From: a virus
IMG/VR virus record: IMGVR_UViG_3300049489_000321
Span: 64,001-128,000 of that record
DNA: 64,000 nucleotides
Reading direction: 5' to 3' (one strand)
Made by a program: the position numbers and the translations under genes
The notes under the pieces: generated by a model
Seen by the model: only the letters and a program-made list of their open reading frames with translations
Told to the model about the DNA's origin: nothing
Databases searched by the model: none
Part shown: piece after piece, positions 6,991-16,506 of the stretch
How the letters are laid out: each line of letters starts with the position of its first letter
Position numbering within the stretch: the stretch's first letter is position 1

Positions 6991-9354
6991 ATGGCTAGAT
7001 CGTTTACATTTAATGGAAAAACTCGCTTAACACCTGGTGCTATAAGTAGAGTTACAACAAATAGTTTAACTGGAAGCGGCGGTACTAACGGCATAGTTTC
7101 ACTAATAGGTGAGGCGGACGGAGGAACGCCAGGAGAAGTACTTACCTTCGATGATCCAGACGAAGCTATCGAGCATTTCGGTTCAGGACCGCTAGCCGAC
7201 GCTGCTAGAATAGTTTTTGATCCATCTGCTGACCCAAGAGTCCCTGGTGGTGCTTTTAGAATCCTTTGTTATAAAGTAAACGCTGCAACACAAGCCAGCA
7301 CCACTCTTCCTTCTGAACAGGTTCTTCTAGGTACTACTCTTGATGGCGACTGCACTTCTACTGTTCTTAACTGGACAGGAGCACCTGTTTTAGCGGTAGA
7401 TTCCCGCATTGGTTCTTGGGTTATGGTGAATGGCGAAAAGCGCAGGATCGTATCGAACACTGCCGACAGCATTACTGTTTCACAGGCTTTCTCTACCACT
7501 CCTGCGTTAAACGACAACTTCTATGTTTTGTCAAACGCGCTAGAGATTACATCAATTGACTACGGCGCGCACACCAATCTTATCCGTGCCGAAGTAGAGC
7601 CTGGCGACGGAGATAACACCAGTGTAGTTACTATTAGTTACGACGAATCTACTGAACAATCAGGTGATTTAGGCGGTAACGCTGTTCTAGAGGTAATGTA
7701 CCTAGGCGGACCAGTACCTGATCAGGGAGATACTGGCCCTGCCGCGCAGGATGTTGTGGTTACGGCTGCGACTACTTCTACCGTATCCGCGACTTTTGTT
7801 GATGCTCCCGAACCTAACCAATACGATGGTTACGTTATTGAATTTGAAAGCGGACTTCGTAGATTAATTGCTAGCCACAATACCAGCACTTCCGCAGTGT
7901 TTACTCTTGATGGGGACACTCCTTTAACTGCTGGTGAAGCTGTAGCTGTAGTTGGCGAAACCATGACTATCCGCGCTGTAACTGCTGCAACTGCCTCAAT
8001 AGTCGGTAGCGGCGGCGTAGCAACAGGTTTTGAGACTGCAATTACGATGGAACCTGTTTCTGTTGCCGATGATCTTGATTTAGATTTTCTCCCAGATGAA
8101 ACATTAGCCGCCTTTATCACGCGCGTAAATGCTGGCGGAAAGTATCTGCTTGCGGCAGGTGAAGGTATTAATGCTAACACTACTTTAATGAAGGAGATGG
8201 ATTTTGGTACTCGCGCTACTGCTGTAGACGTTAGATTTGATCACACAATTGAATATGACGATAGAGGTACCTTCCGTGCTGATCTACAAGCCGTCGTTGA
8301 CTGGATTAACGATAACTCTTCAATCGTTACTTGCGAACGCCATGCAGTTGAAGGGTCGGAGTTACCCGCGTATACTGGTGGATCCGCGTCTATAGTTGAT
8401 GACGTTGCTACCTATTTAATTGGCGGTACTCGTGGTTCTTCAACCAACTCTGATTGGCAAGATGGTTTTGACGCCCTTCTAGAAGTACGGCACCAGCACT
8501 GCGCGCCTTTAATTAGCTATGATTTAGCTGATGATGGGCTGGGTTCAACTGCTACGTTTGCCTCCGTTGCCGCACAGGCCGCTTCTTTCGCGGATGCTGC
8601 TAATAGCGGTATGAATGCCGGTGCCGGTGAACTAGGTGTTTACCTTGGTATGGATGGTACTAAGACCGAACTTCTTGCTTTAACCAACGTCACTAATAAT
8701 CCGAACGTCCACGTTACAGGACAGAAGATGACTGTACTCGATCCCACAGGAACACTAGCGGAGAAGCCGGAATGGTCTGCGGCTGCTAACGCGGCTGGTA
8801 TGCGCGCCGGTATGCCCGATGTAGGCGAGTCACTTACCTTCAAGAAGGCCAAGTGCGTAGGAATTTCAAATGATCCAAGCTGGAGGACCAAGAGCGACAC
8901 GGATCGTAATGCGTTAGTTGAGGGCGGTGTCATGTTCCTAGAAGCGGCTCCAAATGGTGGTTTCCGCTGGGTTCGTGACTTAACTTCATACATTAGCGAT
9001 GACGACAACAATAACTACATTGATGGCGCTGTTCGTGACGCTACGCGTTACATAACATATGACCTTCGTTCTAGCGTCGAAGAACGCTTCACAGGCGAGG
9101 CGAGAGCGGCTACTGTTTCGTCAATCAGATCGTTCGTTTCAGAGAAATTGGACATATACTATAAGGCTGGAATTTTGGTTGACTCAAACGATCCAGAAGA
9201 TCCAAATAGCACCACAGTTATTCCTGGTTGGAGACGCCTAAAGGTTTCTATCGTCGGAAACACTGCAAATATTAAGGCTGAAGTATTTGTTATCAATTCT
9301 GTTGTATTCGAGGGAATTGATATTTCTGTACAAGTCCCGCAACTTGTTGGATAA
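6991..9354 (+). CDS. Contractile tail sheath protein
   Basis: 787 aa. N-terminal TPGA.SRV...LIGEADGGTPG...FGSGPL and C-terminal AGMRAG..VGESLTFK...DLTSY...SSVEERFTG sheath motifs; RBS AAGGAG. Confidence 0.9.
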   Translation: MARSFTFNGKTRLTPGAISRVTTNSLTGSGGTNGIVSLIGEADGGTPGEVLTFDDPDEAIEHFGSGPLADAARIVFDPSADPRVPGGAFRILCYKVNAATQASTTLPSEQVLLGTTLDGDCTSTVLNWTGAPVLAVDSRIGSWVMVNGEKRRIVSNTADSITVSQAFSTTPALNDNFYVLSNALEITSIDYGAHTNLIRAEVEPGDGDNTSVVTISYDESTEQSGDLGGNAVLEVMYLGGPVPDQGDTGPAAQDVVVTAATTSTVSATFVDAPEPNQYDGYVIEFESGLRRLIASHNTSTSAVFTLDGDTPLTAGEAVAVVGETMTIRAVTAATASIVGSGGVATGFETAITMEPVSVADDLDLDFLPDETLAAFITRVNAGGKYLLAAGEGINANTTLMKEMDFGTRATAVDVRFDHTIEYDDRGTFRADLQAVVDWINDNSSIVTCERHAVEGSELPAYTGGSASIVDDVATYLIGGTRGSSTNSDWQDGFDALLEVRHQHCAPLISYDLADDGLGSTATFASVAAQAASFADAANSGMNAGAGELGVYLGMDGTKTELLALTNVTNNPNVHVTGQKMTVLDPTGTLAEKPEWSAAANAAGMRAGMPDVGESLTFKKAKCVGISNDPSWRTKSDTDRNALVEGGVMFLEAAPNGGFRWVRDLTSYISDDDNNNYIDGAVRDATRYITYDLRSSVEERFTGEARAATVSSIRSFVSEKLDIYYKAGILVDSNDPEDPNSTTVIPGWRRLKVSIVGNTANIKAEVFVINSVVFEGIDISVQVPQLVG

Positions 9355-9378
9355 GCGTATAAACAAGGAGCGTAATCT

Positions 9379-9837
9379 GTGACAAAGTTACTTGATCCAT
9401 ACTTAGGGATGTTACCTCCTGAGGTTAGGAGAGTACTAGAAAACGACATAGGAGTAAGTGACACAGAACTCAAAGCTTCAATCGAAGAACTTGCAACAAT
9501 AGTTGCTGGCCTTGTAGAAGATGACAACAACGAAGACGCAGATCACGCCGCACTTCGGCAGTTGATACATTTTATAGACAACGGACCCGCAGAGGGCTTC
9601 GCTTCTGCGTATAGAGAAAACACAGGTGGAGCATTTCCTAGTTCTGTAATTTGGTGGACATCACCTGCTAAAGTATCAAAAATAGTTGAGAAAAACATAA
9701 CGTATACAGGAGCATTTCCAACGTCTTTTGAATGGAAGATGTACGACACAGACGGATCAACCGTACTTGCCGTCGTAACAGATACTATAACTTATAGTGG
9801 TGCTTTTGAGTCAAGTAGAACTAGAACAATAGGATAA
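9379..9837 (+). CDS. Hypothetical virion accessory protein
   Basis: GTG start with AAGGAG. Repeated TY(T/S)GAF motif. N-terminal helix resembles those of 12458 and 13958. Confidence 0.6.
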   Translation: MTKLLDPYLGMLPPEVRRVLENDIGVSDTELKASIEELATIVAGLVEDDNNEDADHAALRQLIHFIDNGPAEGFASAYRENTGGAFPSSVIWWTSPAKVSKIVEKNITYTGAFPTSFEWKMYDTDGSTVLAVVTDTITYSGAFESSRTRTIG

Positions 9838-9840
9838 ACA

Positions 9841-11298
9841 ATGAGCGACACCAATCCAGTATCAGTGTTACATGACTCTGACGGCGTTCCTATGGCTGTT
9901 GAGGATGGAGGAACCATACCTGCAGACACTAAGGCACTGTTGCTTGCTGGCAATGATGGCGGTACAGCTAATGTGGTTAAGGTAGATGCTGGCGGAAGCG
10001 TGGCGGTAGATGGATCCGGTGTTACACAACCTATCTCGGCGGTCGATCTTCCTCTACCTACAGGCGCTTCAACAGAAGCTACTTTAGCAGCTATTAAAGC
10101 TAAGACAGACAATATAGACGTTGCGCTAAGTACTCGTGCTGTTACCGGTCTTACAGACGCAGAATTACGTTCTTCTCCGGTAGACGTATACGGTCCACTA
10201 ACAGATGTTGAATTAAGAGCAACTCCTGTTGATGTGCTGGGTCCTTTAACAGACGCAGAACTAAGAGCCTCCGCAGTACCTGTGTCTGCAAGTTCGCTTC
10301 CGTTGCCCTCTGGAGCAGCGACAGCCGCTTTACAAACCCAGCCAGGCATAGACATCGGTGATGTTACTGTAAACAATGCTGCTGGGGTAGACGCGGTTAA
10401 TGTACAAGACGGTGGTAATAGTATAACCGTAGACGCACCAGTCGGAACACCAGTAGCAGTTAGGTTGAGTGACGGAAGTGCGTTTTATGACGGAACCAAA
10501 ACAGGACAGCTTCCTTCCGCACTAGTAGGTTCTAGACTAGATGTCAATGCTGGTGCCTGGCTAGGTTCTACTTCACCAACTGTAGGTCAAAAAACAAGCG
10601 CAGACTCAATACCGGTTGTTATATCGTCAGATCAGACCGGTGTTCAAGTACAAGGCACCGCTGCAAATGCCGCCGCTGCATCCGGCAATCCAATACAGGT
10701 TGGAGGCGTGGACTCTTCTGGAAACATACGTAGAGTTCTTACACAGATAGACGGATCTGTTCGTACTAAGGCGACAAATCACGCAACGTTTGCGGTTACA
10801 GCCAGCGATGCTGTGCTTGGTAACAATAAATCAATGATTTCCATAGTTAACGGAGTAGGGTCTACTGTGCTACTAAGATTAAGAGAAGTGTATCTAGTAA
10901 ACACACAAACTGCTAACGTTTCTGGAGTCATAGCTACTCTTGCACTGAGAAGAATAACAGGACACTCTGCCGGTACATCATTGACTCCGCTTCCGCACGA
11001 CACCGCTGATTCTCTAAACGTTAACGTTACTGCTATAACAGGGTCAACCGTAGCAGGAGAGGCGGCTGGGTTTTTAAAACGATGGGCTTTCAGTTCAGAC
11101 GAGTGGGGTTCTGGCGCGGCAGACGTAGAATCTTCTGCGCAAAATAATCAAACGTTGTTTCCTATACTTAACACAACCAACACCTCAATACGACCAGTTA
11201 CACTGCGTGCTGGTGAAGGAATTACCATTAAATGCGAAACGAATACAACAGCAGGACAGTTTGACGTGTTTGTTTTGTTTACACAGGAAAGTGAATAG
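9841..11298 (+). CDS. Fibre-like virion protein with 16-aa tandem repeats
   Basis: Three G(P)LTD(A/V)ELR..PV repeats, two LPLP(T/S)GA.T.A motifs, and a C-terminal beta-sandwich. Confidence 0.6.
   Translation: MSDTNPVSVLHDSDGVPMAVEDGGTIPADTKALLLAGNDGGTANVVKVDAGGSVAVDGSGVTQPISAVDLPLPTGASTEATLAAIKAKTDNIDVALSTRAVTGLTDAELRSSPVDVYGPLTDVELRATPVDVLGPLTDAELRASAVPVSASSLPLPSGAATAALQTQPGIDIGDVTVNNAAGVDAVNVQDGGNSITVDAPVGTPVAVRLSDGSAFYDGTKTGQLPSALVGSRLDVNAGAWLGSTSPTVGQKTSADSIPVVISSDQTGVQVQGTAANAAAASGNPIQVGGVDSSGNIRRVLTQIDGSVRTKATNHATFAVTASDAVLGNNKSMISIVNGVGSTVLLRLREVYLVNTQTANVSGVIATLALRRITGHSAGTSLTPLPHDTADSLNVNVTAITGSTVAGEAAGFLKRWAFSSDEWGSGAADVESSAQNNQTLFPILNTTNTSIRPVTLRAGEGITIKCETNTTAGQFDVFVLFTQESE
10147..10287 (+). 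repeat. Three imperfect ~48-bp coding tandem repeats
   Basis: GGTC..ACAGA(C/T)G..GAA(T/C)TA.G. units encoding LTDAELR/LTDVELR. Confidence 0.8.
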
Positions 11299-11300
11299 TT

Positions 11301-12176
11301 ATGGGCGCTCCAAAGACTTCTGACGGAAAACCGGTAGTTTCTATATTCCCCACAGAGGGATCAAGAAAAACACTAGTATCACACAATTGGTGTGATAAAA
11401 CTACGTGGTATCAAGAATCAACTAGGGTTGTAGACGAAATTCCAGACGCATTGACTCCTGGCGTTACTTATCAACTAGACAACCAGTTTGTGATAGACAC
11501 GTACCATGGAAAGCTATGGGCAGAAGATGATTTGCTTGATGCTGACGGCAACAGCTACAGGGTTTTAGTAGAGGTAGATTCTGGTTCTGGTTTTGAATCT
11601 AAAGAAGAAAGAGATCCACACGTTGGATCAGGTGGTGATTTCACGCTAGATTACGATACCGGTACCATTACATTTGACCCACCCATAGGGTTGACGGATG
11701 ATGTACGCGTAACTTACCACTATGCCGGTTCTTCTGTATTTACGATAAAACCTACTGAGGGCAAAGTACTGCTATTAAAAAGCGCAGAAGTACAATTCTC
11801 GACTGATGTGAATATGTTAGACACTGTTAAGTTTGTGGCTTATGGATACGTTGATGTATTTGCTCCTCAATTATCTTCTGCCAACGGAGGTCCAATACCA
11901 ACTGGAACCAAAATTCCAGTAAACACAACTACTTATAAGACTATGTATGATTTTCAAGCGGAATCTAACGGTGCCATGCCTACGATGCCAACGTTAGGCG
12001 GATCTGGTTGGAGAGGAATACAGCATAGTTTTGTTGTGTTTTCTTGGAACTACGCAGCTCTTTTAGCTTTGTATAGCAACTATGGAATGGAAGTTCGTAT
12101 ATATCTAGAACATGATGATGCTTTTACCGGAGAATTCGCAACAGCTACGGTTTATGCGTTAACTGAGGACGCGTAG
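11301..12176 (+). CDS. Hypothetical virion protein
   Basis: Contains GDFTLDYDTGTITFDPP..DDVRVTYHY, a common beta-module of phage structural proteins. Confidence 0.6.
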   Translation: MGAPKTSDGKPVVSIFPTEGSRKTLVSHNWCDKTTWYQESTRVVDEIPDALTPGVTYQLDNQFVIDTYHGKLWAEDDLLDADGNSYRVLVEVDSGSGFESKEERDPHVGSGGDFTLDYDTGTITFDPPIGLTDDVRVTYHYAGSSVFTIKPTEGKVLLLKSAEVQFSTDVNMLDTVKFVAYGYVDVFAPQLSSANGGPIPTGTKIPVNTTTYKTMYDFQAESNGAMPTMPTLGGSGWRGIQHSFVVFSWNYAALLALYSNYGMEVRIYLEHDDAFTGEFATATVYALTEDA

Positions 12177-12184
12177 TAACAACG

Positions 12185-12409
12185 ATGAGCCAAACATTAG
12201 TAACTATTTTTATGATTGCGTCATTGATAATTATTTCTGGCGTTGATGTTTACTTAGCCAACGACAATGTTAAAGGAAATACATACTCAGCAAAGATACG
12301 TGCTTGGAGTAGAATTTTTCCACCTTTAAAAATAGGAATATGTGTGTTTTTTGGAATGTTACTTGCCCATTGGTATTGGACTGTGGTAGAATACGTCAAC
12401 TGTAAATAA
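12185..12409 (+). CDS. Small two-TM membrane protein (holin-like)
   Basis: Two hydrophobic segments, the second ending FFGMLLAHWYW. Confidence 0.55.
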   Translation: MSQTLVTIFMIASLIIISGVDVYLANDNVKGNTYSAKIRAWSRIFPPLKIGICVFFGMLLAHWYWTVVEYVNCK

Positions 12410-12420
12410 TTTATCAACAA

Positions 12421-12438
12421 TATATATATATATATATA
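12421..12438. repeat. (TA)9 microsatellite directly upstream of the RBS of 12458
   Basis: TATATATATATATATATA then GGAG, and an A8 run leading into the ATG. Confidence 0.9.
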
Positions 12439-12457
12439 GGAGAAACAGACAAAAAAA

Positions 12458-13753
12458 ATGGATATAACTCAATATTTTAGCGGTATGCCAGTAGAGGCTA
12501 AAAACGCTATACAAAAAGAGCTAGAAAGTACAGACGATGTATGGCCTGTGTTCGTTTTCCGTCCTGGAGACCCAGACGGAACTAGACAAAACGTTTATAC
12601 ATCGTGGACTGAGCTAATGTCTGCTTTAGACGCAACCCGCGAGAATGGCATACGGTATTTACAGTTTGACTTTGGATACACTGGCGGCACGTTTGACGTA
12701 CCTGCTGGAACTTGGGACTTTACTGATGTAAAGTGGACTGACACTATGCGGCGTGGTAACGGTGGGTTATTTGCCTTTACAGGCGGAATTTTCCTCGGTG
12801 ATGGCGTAATAATCGAAAACCTAGCATTTATAGAACTTCATGCCACAGACGTAATCTGCACCAGTGAGACAACGGTGCCTATGACATTTAACGAGACTTG
12901 GCATACTATATGTCTTGGCGGTTCGCAGACGTGGCTGTATTCGCTAACTTCTGTGCCGCTCATCCGTCTTGGTGCCACGTTTTGTCCGCCCATTACGGTG
13001 GAGAACCCAGAAGGCGCCTTCCCGCTGTACGAATCGTCGTTTCTAGGTACAGCAGGTTTGACGACGCTAGGATCATTGTACGCAGGGTACGACTACGGCA
13101 CACCTACCGTAGACCTGATGGGTCGTGGTGTTGGTTTAGTGTGTAACTGGGAACGCAACACATTCGTAAACTCGTGCCCATATCCTTCGGGAGCATACAT
13201 AGAGTCAATCAACTCTATCCCAAGTTTCGGCGCAGGTTCATTTGGTGACCCTTTTTCTGAAACTAATACGCAAGGAAATAACTACGATCTATCCGCTACT
13301 CTAGACGTGTCTATGGTCACAATCAGCGTAGCACGGTACGCCTACGCGTCAGGCTGGCAGACAGCTCCGGATCGCGGCATGCCGATCACACCTACACGTT
13401 GGCCGGACGGGTTCCACCCTCCGTACGGCGCTGTAACCAATTGTGATCCAACCACAGGACCGGTTGACGTGTACTTGGAGGGAGCTTATCCTAACTTCGG
13501 TTCTCAGTATCTAATAGCTGATTCAGTTGGAACATGTGGTGTTGGTAACGAGATCCGGATACATGCCAAACCTGGTGAGTTGATCAATGGAGTTAATCCG
13601 TACGTACTTGATACGCCATACGGGGCTGCCATGTTGGTGTCGGTTCCTGACGGTCCCGGTGCTTATGAGCCTGTAAAGGGAGACCCGGTTGGAACGTACC
13701 CAATTAAAAACACTATAATCGGACAATGGATTGTGCTTAAGGGAGGCGCGTAA
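12458..13753 (+). CDS. Paralogue A, 431-aa putative fibre/adhesin-like protein
   Basis: Colinear with 13958-15262. C-terminal CDPTTGPVDVYL..G..YLIADSVG..NEIRI..GELING..GQWIV resembles a beta domain common in phage fibre/decoration proteins. Confidence 0.65.
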   Translation: MDITQYFSGMPVEAKNAIQKELESTDDVWPVFVFRPGDPDGTRQNVYTSWTELMSALDATRENGIRYLQFDFGYTGGTFDVPAGTWDFTDVKWTDTMRRGNGGLFAFTGGIFLGDGVIIENLAFIELHATDVICTSETTVPMTFNETWHTICLGGSQTWLYSLTSVPLIRLGATFCPPITVENPEGAFPLYESSFLGTAGLTTLGSLYAGYDYGTPTVDLMGRGVGLVCNWERNTFVNSCPYPSGAYIESINSIPSFGAGSFGDPFSETNTQGNNYDLSATLDVSMVTISVARYAYASGWQTAPDRGMPITPTRWPDGFHPPYGAVTNCDPTTGPVDVYLEGAYPNFGSQYLIADSVGTCGVGNEIRIHAKPGELINGVNPYVLDTPYGAAMLVSVPDGPGAYEPVKGDPVGTYPIKNTIIGQWIVLKGGA

Positions 13754-13755
13754 TT

Positions 13756-13905
13756 ATGCCTACAATTAAGGAAAATATTACGGCTGCTGTTGTTGCGTTA
13801 AATACTGCAAAACGCACACATGGACAAGACAGTAAAGAAGCTAATGAAGCGCGCCTAGTATTGACTAATTTAATAAAACAAGCTAGAGAAGCGACTGAGA
13901 ACTAG
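13756..13905 (+). CDS. 49-aa helical-hairpin microprotein, copy 1 (not in ORF track)
   Basis: MPTIKENITAAVVALNTAKRTHGQDSKEANEARLVLTNLIKQAREATEN; RBS GGAGG; homologous to 15265 and 15650. Confidence 0.8.
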   Translation: MPTIKENITAAVVALNTAKRTHGQDSKEANEARLVLTNLIKQAREATEN

Positions 13906-13957
13906 TGTATTTGTATCATTATATACAATAAATATACAACAAAGGATAAACAAACAA

Positions 13958-15262
13958 ATGGATATATCTCAATATTTTAGTGGAATGCCCGATGAAATTA
14001 AAAACGCATTTCAAGCAGAACTAGACAGCGCAGACACCTTGTGGTCTGTGTTCGTCTTCCGTCCTAGCGATCCAGGCGGTCAGCGCCAGAACGTGTACAC
14101 TTCTTGGACTGACCTAATGGCTGCTCTAGACGAGACACGCGAGAACGGCATTCGCCACCTTCAGTGGGACCTGTCTTTCCACGACAACTCATTCGATATT
14201 CCACCCGGTACGTGGAACTTCACTGATGTTAAATGGACTGACACCATGCGTAAGGGCAGAGGCGGTCTGTTCAATGCGACCCAGAGCATATTTGCTGGTG
14301 ACGATGTAATCATTGAAAATTTGTCGTATGTAGAGTTTGACGGATCTGAATTAGTCTGTACCAGTGAAACAACGGTTCCAATGACGTTCAGTCAGGATTG
14401 GCACCAGCTTTGGATAGGTGGCTGTTCAGGACAAATGTACTCGGTTTCATCTAAGCCACTCATTCGTCTTGGTGCCACGCTATGTCCTCCTATTTCGGAA
14501 GAAGATCCAGGTGGTGCATTCTTCCTCTACGAGTCAGCGATTATGGGCACTACTGGATTATCAACGTTTGGTAGCGTGTATTCGGGATACGACTTTACAA
14601 CTCCCGCTGTGGACTTAATGGGACGAGGCATTGGTCTCGTGTGTAACTGGGAGCGTAATATGTTCATGAATTCATGCACATATGCTTCTGGTGCGTACAT
14701 TGAGGCGTATATGACAGTGCCTAGCTTTGGCGCTGGATCGTTTGGTCCTCTGCCCACCGACGACTTTAAGTCGGGCAACGACCACAACTACGCTTCTACC
14801 TTGGATGTGTCGTTAGTTACGTTTAACCTCTCACGGTACTGCTACGCGGCTGGGTTCTCTACTCGACCTGACCTAGCTACCCCGGTTAATCCAACCAAGT
14901 GGCCTTTACCAAACGGATTTCACGTCGGGTACGGATCAGTAACTAACTGTGATACTACGGATGGTCCGCTAGACGTGTTTCTCCCGCTTGCTAATCCCAA
15001 CTTCGGTGCTCAGGTGCTGATTGTTGACTCGGTTGGCGCTGCTGGTGTTGGTAATGAGATCATTATTCACGCTAGAGCCGGTGAAACGATTAACGGCGCC
15101 GCGACGTACACCATTGACACTGCGCGAGGATCTGTTATGTTGGTGTCTGTTGCTGAAGGCGAAGCTGGTATCTACGAACCGTTGGCGTGGGGCGAGGGTG
15201 GAACCTACCCCGTCAAGAACCCCATCGTAGGACAGTGGATTATTGCATCAAAGGTAGTTTAA
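13958..15262 (+). CDS. Paralogue B, 434-aa putative fibre/adhesin-like protein
   Basis: 44 of the first 60 aa identical to paralogue A; colinear over the full length. Confidence 0.65.
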   Translation: MDISQYFSGMPDEIKNAFQAELDSADTLWSVFVFRPSDPGGQRQNVYTSWTDLMAALDETRENGIRHLQWDLSFHDNSFDIPPGTWNFTDVKWTDTMRKGRGGLFNATQSIFAGDDVIIENLSYVEFDGSELVCTSETTVPMTFSQDWHQLWIGGCSGQMYSVSSKPLIRLGATLCPPISEEDPGGAFFLYESAIMGTTGLSTFGSVYSGYDFTTPAVDLMGRGIGLVCNWERNMFMNSCTYASGAYIEAYMTVPSFGAGSFGPLPTDDFKSGNDHNYASTLDVSLVTFNLSRYCYAAGFSTRPDLATPVNPTKWPLPNGFHVGYGSVTNCDTTDGPLDVFLPLANPNFGAQVLIVDSVGAAGVGNEIIIHARAGETINGAATYTIDTARGSVMLVSVAEGEAGIYEPLAWGEGGTYPVKNPIVGQWIIASKVV

Positions 15263-15264
15263 TC

Positions 15265-15414
15265 ATGGCACTTAAAGAAGACATACAAGCAGCTACTGCT
15301 GCTCTGAGAGCGGCTAAGCAGGCTCACGGGCACGATAGTCCTGAGGCGGTTGCAGCGAGACTTGCGTTAGCTGCTCTAATTCAACAAGCCAAGGAAATAA
15401 AGAATGAGCAGTAA
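15265..15414 (+). CDS. 49-aa helical-hairpin microprotein, copy 2
   Basis: MALKEDIQAATAALRAAKQAHGHDSPEAVAARLALAALIQQAKEIKNEQ; true start ATG15265 rather than 15187. Confidence 0.8.
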   Translation: MALKEDIQAATAALRAAKQAHGHDSPEAVAARLALAALIQQAKEIKNEQ

Positions 15415-15580
15415 ACCGTTAGACGATCGTTCTATGACCGCTTTTCGTGAATTTGTAGAAGCGCAAAAGATGTACGGTGCGCAGAGCCGACCGGCGTTGT
15501 TAGCTTTAAAAAAACTACGTAAAGCAATAGGAACGCATAAAGAACCGCCACCAGGCATGATTCAAGTCGGCGGCGTATAG
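15404..15580 (+). CDS. 58-aa small protein, possibly a divergent member of the microprotein family
   Basis: MSSKPLDDRSMTAFREFVEAQKMYGAQSRPALLALKKLRKAIG...; A.K.YG..S..A..A register matches; RBS AAGGA. Confidence 0.6.
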   Translation: MSSKPLDDRSMTAFREFVEAQKMYGAQSRPALLALKKLRKAIGTHKEPPPGMIQVGGV

Positions 15581-15649
15581 AAATTGCGTAGTGTTATTGG
15601 TTTCTTATTTTATTAAAATAATAAAAAAGAATCGGAGATTAAACTAAAA

Positions 15650-15799
15650 ATGAGCATTCCTAGTAAAGAAGAAGTTGAAGCAGCTGTTGCTGCACTTAGA
15701 TCTGCTAAGCAGGAGCATGGACACGACAGTCAGCAGGCCGCCGCTGCCAGAGCAGCGCTCGCTGCATTATTGCAGAGTGCGTCTGATAGACGCCAATAG
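15650..15799 (+). CDS. 49-aa helical-hairpin microprotein, copy 3 (not in ORF track)
   Basis: MSIPSKEEVEAAVAALRSAKQEHGHDSQQAAAARAALAALLQSASDRRQ; RBS GGAG. Confidence 0.8.
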   Translation: MSIPSKEEVEAAVAALRSAKQEHGHDSQQAAAARAALAALLQSASDRRQ

Positions 15800-15855
15800 T
15801 GTCTATAGTTTGATAGTTAAATAACTAACTCATCTACCAACGGTAGAAGAAGTCC

Positions 15856-15895
15856 AAGGGTCGCCTATAATAAAATAGGCGGCTCTTGTTTTTTT
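15856..15895 (+). terminator. Rho-independent terminator closing the sheath plus accessory cassette
   Basis: CAAGGGTCGCCTAT / ATAGGCGGCTCTTG stem followed by a T-run. Confidence 0.85.
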
Positions 15896-15896
15896 A

Positions 15897-15925
15897 TTGA
15901 CAATAGTTGTATATTTTGGTATATT
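15897..15925 (+). promoter_or_regulatory. Sigma70-like promoter upstream of tail tube
   Basis: TTGACA-17 nt-TATATT with TG extension. Confidence 0.7.
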
Positions 15926-15991
15926 AATGGATAGCAAACACCAATAGGTGGCTTAGACTGGCTTTTAGGCGTTTCTAAGATGCGATTATTT

Positions 15992-16029
15992 AAGGCGATT
16001 TGGATATTCCAAGTCGCTTTTTTGTTTTT
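15992..16029 (+). terminator. Terminator-like hairpin in tail tube leader
   Basis: AAGGCGATTTGGA-TAT-TCCAAGTCGCTTT then TTTGTTTTT. Confidence 0.75.
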
Positions 16030-16080: not shown

Positions 16081-16506
16081 ATGGCTGCTCAGACATTTAG
16101 TGGCGCTCGCGCCAGAGTACTGATTGATGGCAAAATCATTGGCTTCTGTGGCGGGTTATCCGGTTCAGAAAGCATTGATTATGAACCTGTAGACGTACTA
16201 AATCTATTAGAGGTAAAGGAATTTGTGCCGGTTGCGTATCGCGCGACACTATCAGCGCAGATGTTCCGTATTATTGGCAACTCTATCAAGAAGCAAGGTA
16301 TAATGCCTCGTGGTAACGACTTGGACATCCTAACAGCAGGCGACCTAACTGTCATGGTTGAAGACAAACTAAATCCAGGCCAGATTGCCGCGCAGTTTAC
16401 TGGTGTTAAATGCCAGGAGCATTCTTTCGATATTACTGCCAGAGGACTGGTGTCAGAGAACGTCAATTTCGTGGCGATTAGAGTGAAGGACGAGAGCGAA
16501 CTTTAA
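16081..16506 (+). CDS. Tail tube protein
   Basis: 141 aa; MAAQTFSGARA..IDGK.IG...GLVSENVNF.AI resembles SPO1/K-type tube proteins; RBS TAAGGAG. Confidence 0.85.
   Translation: MAAQTFSGARARVLIDGKIIGFCGGLSGSESIDYEPVDVLNLLEVKEFVPVAYRATLSAQMFRIIGNSIKKQGIMPRGNDLDILTAGDLTVMVEDKLNPGQIAAQFTGVKCQEHSFDITARGLVSENVNFVAIRVKDESEL

Follow-up and report, generated by a model that had tools for sequence, protein, structure and literature searches.

Two coupled gene pairs in a phage tail module

The DNA analyzed here, called the window below, is a stretch of 64,000 nucleotides (nt) corresponding to bases 64001 to 128000 of the 147.5-kb IMG/VR virus record IMGVR_UViG_3300049489_000321, which is about 86% complete. 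The source virus is an uncultured contractile-tailed phage, and the + strand of the window carries a series of genes for a tail sheath, a tail tube, a tail assembly chaperone, a protein of tape-measure size, and the baseplate. Our subject is a two-gene unit that occurs twice in tandem between the sheath and tube genes. Each unit consists of a gene for a large protein of 431 or 434 amino acids (aa), L431 and L434, and a gene for a 49-aa protein, m49a and m49b. A third 49-aa open reading frame (ORF), m49c, lies downstream. An earlier note on this DNA, made from its letters alone, had drawn attention to this arrangement. The genes of the duplicated region are as follows.

12458..13753, + strand: L431, putative tailspike-like receptor-binding protein, copy 1; N-terminal peptide at aa 1-25, predicted beta-helix at about 27-290, predicted gp9/gp10 XD1-like C-terminal domain at about 295-431
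13756..13905, + strand: m49a, predicted 49-aa helical hairpin; starts 2 nt past the L431 stop, with a GGGAGG ribosome-binding site within the end of L431
13958..15262, + strand: L434, putative tailspike-like receptor-binding protein, copy 2; has the architecture of L431 and is 62% identical to it
15265..15414, + strand: m49b, predicted 49-aa helical hairpin; ATG 2 nt past the L434 stop, with AAGGTAG, resembling a ribosome-binding site, within the end of L434
15404..15580, + strand: m58, 58-aa ORF, possible gene; 11-nt overlap with the stop of m49b
15650..15799, + strand: m49c, third predicted 49-aa helical hairpin; no large gene of its own

L431 and L434 were found to be colinear paralogues with 62% identity over 429 aa, as the earlier note had stated. 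Its observation that a small ORF, mishandled by the program-made ORF list, follows each large ORF within 2 nt also held. In both units, the stop codon of the large ORF is followed by exactly 2 nt and then by the ATG of a 49-aa ORF, and the sequences GGGAGG and AAGGTAG, which lie within the last codons of the large genes, are Shine-Dalgarno-like. The program list wrongly starts m49b at GTG 15187; we placed the start at ATG 15265 because the homologue P0008 (see below) opens with the same MALKEDIQ. The two kinds of gene have diverged to a similar degree, with a nonsynonymous divergence (pN) of 0.24 between L431 and L434 and of 0.29 between m49a and m49b. Together with the 2-nt spacing in both units, these values fit a duplication of the two genes as a unit. 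AT-rich leaders that resemble each other precede both large genes (12410-12457 and 13906-13957), with a TATATA run, then AGGAG/AAGGA, then an A-rich stretch as spacer; the leader is therefore part of the duplicated unit.

The large and small proteins

The structure of L431 was predicted with AlphaFold2 at a predicted local distance difference test score (pLDDT) of 77. The model consists of two short N-terminal helices, a right-handed beta-helix at about residues 27 to 290 (largely with a pLDDT of >90), a poorly predicted linker, and a beta-sandwich at about residues 295 to 431. According to VIA-align, the beta-helix aligned with tailspikes and pectate-lyase-fold enzymes, namely, CBA120 TSP1 and TSP3, the cyanophage Pam1 tailspike, pectate lyases, and pectin methylesterases, at Z scores of 8 to 11, which are moderate values obtained on a prediction. 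The sandwich superposed on residues 79-179 of CBA120 TSP4, 67-166 of T4 gp9, and 35-149 of T4 gp10, and also on a baseplate protein of Klebsiella phage KP1, with Z scores of 12 to 13 and a root mean square deviation of 2.0 to 2.4 Å over about 100 residues. Foldseek agreed with VIA-align on these folds, and the ESM Atlas neighbours of the large protein were pectate-lyase-like phage proteins (PF12708/PF13229) and gp9.

No single large-protein sequence reached a Pfam cut-off, and no Pfam enzyme family was matched. An exhaustive profile search for relatives recovered 249 representative proteins. Close relatives were very rare, with one at 86% and one at 51% identity. When a profile of 46 family members was compared with the PDB, it matched residues 57-149 of T4 gp10 (E value, 3e-7), residues 100-178 of CBA120 TSP4 (E value, 3e-4), and the N terminus of the T4 long-fibre protein gp34. 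The family is modular, with conserved blocks at about residues 28 to 100 and 320 to 400 (numbering of the large protein) and a variable middle. The N termini of the 249 members differ, being immunoglobulin (Ig)-like, collagen-like with Gly-X-Y runs, or a short peptide. The Ig-like and collagen-like N termini of distant relatives are typical fibre modules, and the collagen-like ones suggest that these proteins may be trimers. Eight of the distant relatives (P0040, P0052, P0058, P0062, P0078, P0096, P0099, and P0129) share a conserved collagen-like start, MAD(I/F)(S/N)KRG.DCDDCEGERGERGKRG, which appears to be another kind of N-terminal attachment module, joined to the beta-helix/XD1 body that the family shares.

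A right-handed beta-helix is the usual polysaccharide-binding or -cleaving body of tailspikes. The predicted beta-helix, the XD1-like fold, the gp10 profile match, and the fibre-like relatives bear out the earlier proposal that the large proteins are alternative fibres or adhesins, and we consider them very probably receptor-binding tail proteins. On the model, L431 and L434 are tailspike-like receptor-binding proteins with an unusual domain order, in which the XD1-like domain comes last. The XD1 domain of TSP4 is not the domain that docks other trimers, and its fold is also found in glycan-binding modules (PMC8825819).

The distribution of these proteins was narrow. Among 50,697 cultured phage genomes searched at the DNA and protein levels, none yielded a relative of either the large or the small proteins, and a distant 1231-aa homologue used as a query only touched a Prochlorococcus phage fibre protein. 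Scans of IMG/VR with the family alignment, single distant homologues, and back-translated motifs of both proteins found nothing. There was no large-protein relative in 401 Actinomycetota genomes, and 11 of 401 Pseudomonadota genomes carried prophage fibre proteins sharing the XD1-like domain only.

The three 49-aa proteins (49-mers) are 45 to 62% identical in pairwise comparisons and share the invariant pattern K-E..AA..AL..AK..HG.DS..A..AR..L, in line with the consensus given earlier. In comparisons between copies, pN was 0.27 to 0.40 versus a synonymous divergence (pS) of 0.64 to 0.79 (pN/pS, about 0.35 to 0.5), the synonymous sites being saturated. A profile search of 5.8 billion proteins returned only the genome's own copies and three outside clusters, P0008 (48 aa; E value, 6e-16), P0159 (53 aa; 1.5e-12), and P0160 (53 aa; 4.6e-10). 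The metagenome contig L001 carries a gene of one of these outside types, with a guanine-plus-cytosine (G+C) content of 71%, versus 39 to 53% for the copies in the window. At 52% nucleotide identity across a G+C range of 39 to 71%, the protein pattern is kept; it has thus been held across very different codon usage. AlphaFold2 predicted a helix at residues 4 to 22, a turn at 23 to 26, and a second helix at 27 to 48, with a mean pLDDT of 94. The helices have alanine-rich faces (invariant A11, A18, A29, and A32), and the 49-mers have no aromatic residues and no cysteines. The outside homologues (E values of 1e-10 to 1e-16), a pN below pS, and the confidently predicted hairpin agree with the earlier view that these are real genes under selection, and we take all three 49-mers to be genuine, selected genes for a two-helix hairpin.

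No family for the 49-mers came out of searches of Pfam, PHROGs, and PDB sequences, and nothing usable came from the ESM Atlas. The judgment that the pairing belongs to no described system appears right, as does the conclusion that the 49-mer family matches no described family. In its strict sense, this family is very small, numbering only a few members even where the databases are very large.

The earlier note had also counted m58 as a fourth copy and had spoken of amplification to three or four copies. Our results bear out three copies but not the fourth. Only six aligned positions are shared between m58 and the 49-mers, a profile of the three 49-mers did not find m58 in the 147-kb genome at an E value of ≤10, and hhalign gave a probability of 0.1%. 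With its AAGGAA ribosome-binding site and its 11-nt overlap with the preceding stop, m58 may still be a gene. We also treated as unrelated a borderline hit, P0161 (E value, 0.5), and a look-alike in L114, which stand beside a primase gene and have an extra C-terminal motif. In both P0161 and L114 (1778-2164, - strand), an HG.DS hairpin is followed by the C-terminal motif PPL..(A/E)..K...(L/I)..LL. In L114, a 127-kb IMG/VR viral contig, the hairpin gene lies directly 5' of a primase-polymerase-like gene, with a ribbon-helix-helix gene near, a setting unlike that of the 49-mers.

A relaxed scan for the hairpin motif in 185,579 species genomes gave 73 loci, none of which lay beside a homologue of the large protein; the same scan of IMG/VR gave four loci. 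Fifty of the 73 belong to an unrelated family of secreted, His-rich, Cys-stapled hairpin proteins, mainly from Acidobacteriota, and the remainder comprise TPR-like and coiled-coil proteins. Against the secreted family, hhalign gave a probability of 83%, which is circular, since the loci had been picked by the motif. Because it occurs in unrelated proteins, the helix-HG.DS-helix turn is a structural motif that recurs, and it does not mark a family. The secreted proteins (50 of the loci L038 to L110, e.g., L041:5242-5571 and L051:4423-4743) have about 108 residues, a signal peptide, a WWD motif, and a His/Asp-rich tail. Their hairpin, C..R..KADH.LHEA..HHG(W/Y)DS.QA..AR.EL.EAR..CW, is bracketed by two cysteines and looks like a periplasmic metal-binding hairpin; the proteins have no Pfam family.

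The insertion between the sheath and tube genes

In the window, the distance from the sheath gene to the tube gene is 6.7 kb. For comparison, we collected 29 IMG/VR relatives by means of their tube proteins (55 to 67% identity), in which the gap was 0.5 to 1.9 kb wherever both genes lay on the retrieved stretch. None of the 29 has a homologue of any gene of this cassette, and the large-protein family is absent from five whole related phage genomes, two of which are at least 96% complete. The G+C content of the inserted block (window 8001-16000) is 0.46 to 0.49, versus 0.40 to 0.42 elsewhere in the window, and the nearest outside relatives of cassette genes lie in DNA of 65 to 70% G+C. The raised G+C content and the high-G+C relatives are consistent with acquisition from a distant phage. 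From this comparison, the whole 6.7-kb block is an insertion at a hot-spot. Its borders and remaining features are as follows.

6991..9354, + strand: tail sheath gene, left flank of the insertion (PHROG tail sheath; E value, 5e-42)
9379..9837, + strand: p152, first gene of the block; its first ~25 residues are the N-terminal peptide of L431 and L434, and the remainder is unrelated
9841..12409, + strand: three more cassette genes (485, 291, and 74 aa) without a family match
15855..15888, + strand: strong intrinsic terminator directly after m49c, with a 14-bp stem and a T run (z, -5.35); ends the cassette transcript
15897..15925, + strand: near-consensus sigma-70-type promoter, TTGACA-17-TATATT; restart for the tube gene and right border of the cassette
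16081..16506, + strand: tail tube gene, flanking structural gene on the right of the insertion

Given the terminator after m49c and the promoter before the tube gene, the cassette genes belong to the late structural transcript. The 485-aa protein (9841-11298) contains repeats of the short motifs LTD(A/V)ELR..PVDV.. and LPLP(T/S)GA(S/A)T, which may point to a fibre shaft; it had no match in Pfam, PHROGs, or the PDB. Searches of PDB sequences with the other cassette proteins were empty. The 74-residue protein (12185-12409), encoded just upstream of L431, has two hydrophobic segments and matches no family; a membrane protein, perhaps one for superinfection exclusion, is a possibility.

The first 25 residues of L431, L434, and p152 share a pattern with a hydrophobic first position, (F/Y/L)-x-x-x-(L/M)-(S/P)-P-E-h-x-x-x-L-x-x-x-(L/I)-x-x-x-D, which we call the N-peptide and which in this phage lineage is a mark of proteins from the sheath-tube locus. 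In five of the nearest relatives, with tube proteins 63 to 67% identical to that of the window (L005, L006, L010, L011, and L028), the short sheath-tube gap encodes one or two proteins that begin with this peptide, their remainders being different. The sites are as follows.

Window: 9379-9450 (p152), 12458-12535 (L431), and 13958-14035 (L434)
L005: 8222-8605 and 8605-9117
L006: 9205-9777
L010: 9357-9737
L011: 6754-7296
L028: 9056-9433

A model of the N-peptide had no other match in the window or the 29 loci (about 0.5 Mb of related DNA). Three distant relatives of L431 that the protein body had led to, namely, P0014, P0131, and P0136, also bear it. The N-peptide is probably a lineage-specific docking or attachment tag with exchangeable payloads, the attachment being presumably to the virion. 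As a lead, the N-peptide at the sheath-tube hot-spot is more general than the hairpin.

Possible role of the hairpin and likeness to known systems

The earlier note had suggested that a profile of the 49-mers be used to look for co-occurrence with the large proteins. Outside the window, the order large-micro-large was seen in one independent case. A metagenome scan gave a single locus, L001 (1.9 kb; 65 to 70% G+C), where the last residues of an ORF that ends in ..DGYGNWIVV are present. This ending, which is the C-terminal signature of the large-protein family, is followed after 53 nt by a 53-aa hairpin homologue (turn AHGPTS) with its own GAGGAG and then by a large gene whose product is 51% identical to L431. 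The L001 large protein has an Ig-like N terminus in place of the short peptide. In relatives that have the N-terminal peptide but not the body of L431, the hairpin gene is missing, so it is the beta-helix/XD1 body, and not the docking peptide, that the hairpin accompanies.

As a rule, a trimeric fibre depends on a chaperone module, which may be part of its own chain or a separate protein, often one encoded just downstream. The explanation that we favor, tentatively and at less than even confidence, is a duplicated spike with a dedicated hairpin helper within an inserted, fibre-like block. Each tandem two-gene unit would encode a tailspike-like receptor-binding protein and a 49-residue helical-hairpin accessory protein. 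The N-terminal peptide of about 25 residues would probably dock the large proteins onto the virion, and the gene of the small protein would be expressed on one late transcript with the large gene and coupled to it. The 49-mer would most likely act in trans, as a dedicated folding or trimerization helper that presumably binds the large protein; its gene occupies the place that Tfa- or gp38-type chaperone genes take beside other fibre genes. Judged from the gene arrangement alone, a dedicated assembly helper is probably what the 49-mer is, and the earlier idea of microproteins as dedicated partners stands as far as this arrangement goes (2-nt coupling in both units, co-duplication, and L001). 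Some joint action of the hairpin and the large protein is somewhat likelier than none, and the narrower claim, that the hairpin is specifically an assembly helper absent from the virion, can be made only tentatively. Among phage proteins of this kind, T4 gp57A, with 79 residues and without aromatic residues, cysteines, or prolines, is required for the trimerization of gp12, gp34, and gp37 (PMC3004832); beta-structured fibres can thus be served by a helical protein of very small size. In favor of a helper there is also the ORF that follows the XD1-bearing fibre genes of proteobacterial prophages, which encodes 100 to 300 aa and is 49-mer-like in none of them; some of these ORFs, judged by eye, resemble tail-fibre assembly proteins. 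In the relative L028, a J-domain gene takes the place 4 nt past the gene of an N-peptide protein.

Several points weigh against a dedicated helper. L001 is the one independent genomic context that was read. In addition, m58 and m49c have no large gene of their own, which is odd for a strict one-to-one chaperone. The conserved hairpin residues mostly form the small core and the turn, so that the fold alone could explain their conservation, and motif-level likeness carries little weight with the HG.DS hairpin motif recurring in unrelated proteins. No sequence relationship of the 49-mers to gp57A, Tfa, gp38, or J-domains was found with Pfam and PHROGs, or with hhalign in the case of the J-domains. 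Furthermore, a need for a chaperone is not known for the XD1 fold.

A broader form of the helper explanation seems doubtful to us. In this form, spikes ending in an XD1-like domain would have in the hairpin a partner of a new and minimal class, which would act in trans either as a six-helix cap or as the smallest chaperone dedicated to a spike. The partner would work within a plug-in system of interchangeable spikes from distant phages, encoded at the sheath-tube hot-spot and docked on the tail by the N-peptide.

It is unlikely, although the same synteny, coupling, and co-duplication speak for it, that the hairpin is a structural partner kept on the spike, such as a cap, plug, or adaptor on the XD1-like domain or the trimer axis, with, for example, three hairpins forming a six-helix bundle. 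The coupling implies near-stoichiometric synthesis, and the alanine-rich helix faces would suit tight packing in a larger bundle. On the other hand, m49c and m58 are surplus to the large genes, and the fold searches, none of which was a systematic search for such a cap, showed no comparable small helical tailspike cap.

About as improbable is that the hairpins are independent, host-directed effectors that travel with the spike genes, for example an Aqs1-like inhibitor or a mimic of the CP12 hairpin. Phage accessory and anti-host genes commonly occur in several paralogous copies, as the small genes do here, two of which have no large gene, and the block itself is an accessory insertion with raised G+C content. 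The large-micro-large order in an unrelated, high-G+C contig argues instead for a tie to the large gene. The Pfam family CP12 (PF02672) was listed for all three 49-mers and was the top match for two of them, at 13.4, 19.2, and 19.3 bits versus a cut-off of 22.7, and these matches span only model positions 1 to 45 of 70. The same model also matched weakly in 8 of 14 control genomes. The nearest hairpins in Foldseek included CP12 chains (6gfo and 5nmu), Aqs1 (6v7w), which is a phage protein directed against quorum sensing, bromodomain helices, and the metal sensor CnrX, and all E values were >0.4. CP12 is known by N- and C-terminal cysteine pairs, an AWD_VEEL core, and a GAPDH-binding C-terminal end. 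Where CP12 has A-W-D-x-V-E-E-L, helix 2 of the 49-mers reads A-A-R-(L/A)-x-L. We rejected CP12 as an identity: besides the scores below the cut-off, the 49-mers have no cysteine, no AWD_VEEL, and no C-terminal half, and a reciprocal profile search of the PDB did not return CP12 at an E value of ≤10.

The sheath-tube gap of three relatives contains small ORFs that score 30 to 41 bits against Pfam DnaJ (cut-off, 27.8) and match only model positions of about 14 to 52, which is the helix II-HPD-helix III part. They are as follows.

L007: 7327-7584
L011: 6357-6743
L028: 9437-9766, 4 nt after the gene of an N-peptide protein

The J-domain (DnaJ) is an Hsp70 co-chaperone defined by the HPD tripeptide. 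The presence of these ORFs at the same locus, matching the hairpin part only and in L028 so closely spaced, could suggest that the 49-mer is a decayed J-domain (helix II, loop, and helix III) that still recruits host Hsp70 to the spike. This is largely refuted and very improbable: the 49-mer turn is HG(H/Q)DS and not HPD, no match to DnaJ (PF00226) was found at an E value of ≤10, and hhalign gave 0.2% against the ORFs at the locus. We regard the shared position as an analogy only. That the small ORFs are untranslated, their likeness coming from duplicated noncoding spacer DNA, is very improbable in view of the protein-level conservation across 39 to 71% G+C, a pN well below pS, the sequences resembling ribosome-binding sites, the conserved starts, the confident fold, and the homologues called as genes in independent assemblies.

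L431 and L434 are, most probably, newly found proteins of the tailspike kind. The hairpin family is undescribed, and its linkage to the spike, which few cases support, is plausible. Receptor-binding proteins set the host range of phages, and many cannot be produced or swapped without helper proteins. If the helper role is true, a spike and the 49-residue helper that travels with it would form a pair simpler than any other of this kind now known, although the very small size of the strict 49-mer family limits its generality. The N-peptide suggests that spikes may be added by a simple docking rule, knowledge of which would help in understanding this uncultured phage group and in laboratory retargeting studies of it.

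The proposed system shares parts with several known ones. As in TSP4, gp10, and gp9, an XD1 fold (the gp9 middle domain or gp10 D1) is predicted, here in the C-terminal ~130 residues of L431. The domain order is inverted, since the XD1-like domain follows the beta-helix, whereas it belongs to the N-terminal anchor region in those proteins. No XD2 or XD3 docking domain was detected in the large proteins, whose attachment seems to occur via the short N-terminal peptide. A beta-helix body and several alternative spikes side by side are also features of the branched-complex tailspikes (PMC8825819), whereas the genes described here lie between the sheath and the tube and not in the baseplate module.

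The 49-mers resemble the N-terminal hairpin of CP12 (PF02672; 6gfo) in being a two-helix hairpin of equal length with a G-x-(D/T)-S turn. They differ from it in lacking the cysteine pairs, AWD_VEEL, and the C-terminal half, and nothing points to a carbon-fixing host. With the small J-domain proteins of L007, L011, and L028 they share the genomic position after an N-peptide gene and a small architecture centered on a helical hairpin; the chaperone-linked role is on the J-domain side, and the 49-mers have no HPD and no profile similarity to these proteins.

Like T4 gp57A (PMC3004832), the 49-mer is a very small, phage-encoded, all-helical protein without aromatic residues or cysteines, and it would likewise be associated with beta-structured fibre proteins that are presumably trimeric. 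It has 49 residues versus 79, and family searches, which do not amount to a direct alignment with gp57A, gave no gp57A-annotated PHROG or Pfam family at an E value of ≤10. Whereas gp57A is a single, unlinked gene that serves several fibres, the gene of the 49-mer directly follows that of its presumed client and is co-duplicated with it.

The arrangement of the genes is like that of lambda Stf-Tfa, P2 H-G, Mu S-U, and T4 gp37-gp38. Tfa- and gp38-type chaperones are 150 to 260 residues long and beta-rich or mixed in structure, unlike the 49-residue hairpin, which also has extra copies without a fibre gene, and Pfam and PHROGs gave no match of the 49-mers to them. The position of the small gene directly 3' of the spike gene is that of Tfa, and in all of these systems a receptor-binding gene is followed by a coupled small gene, the pair being duplicated or exchanged as a unit.

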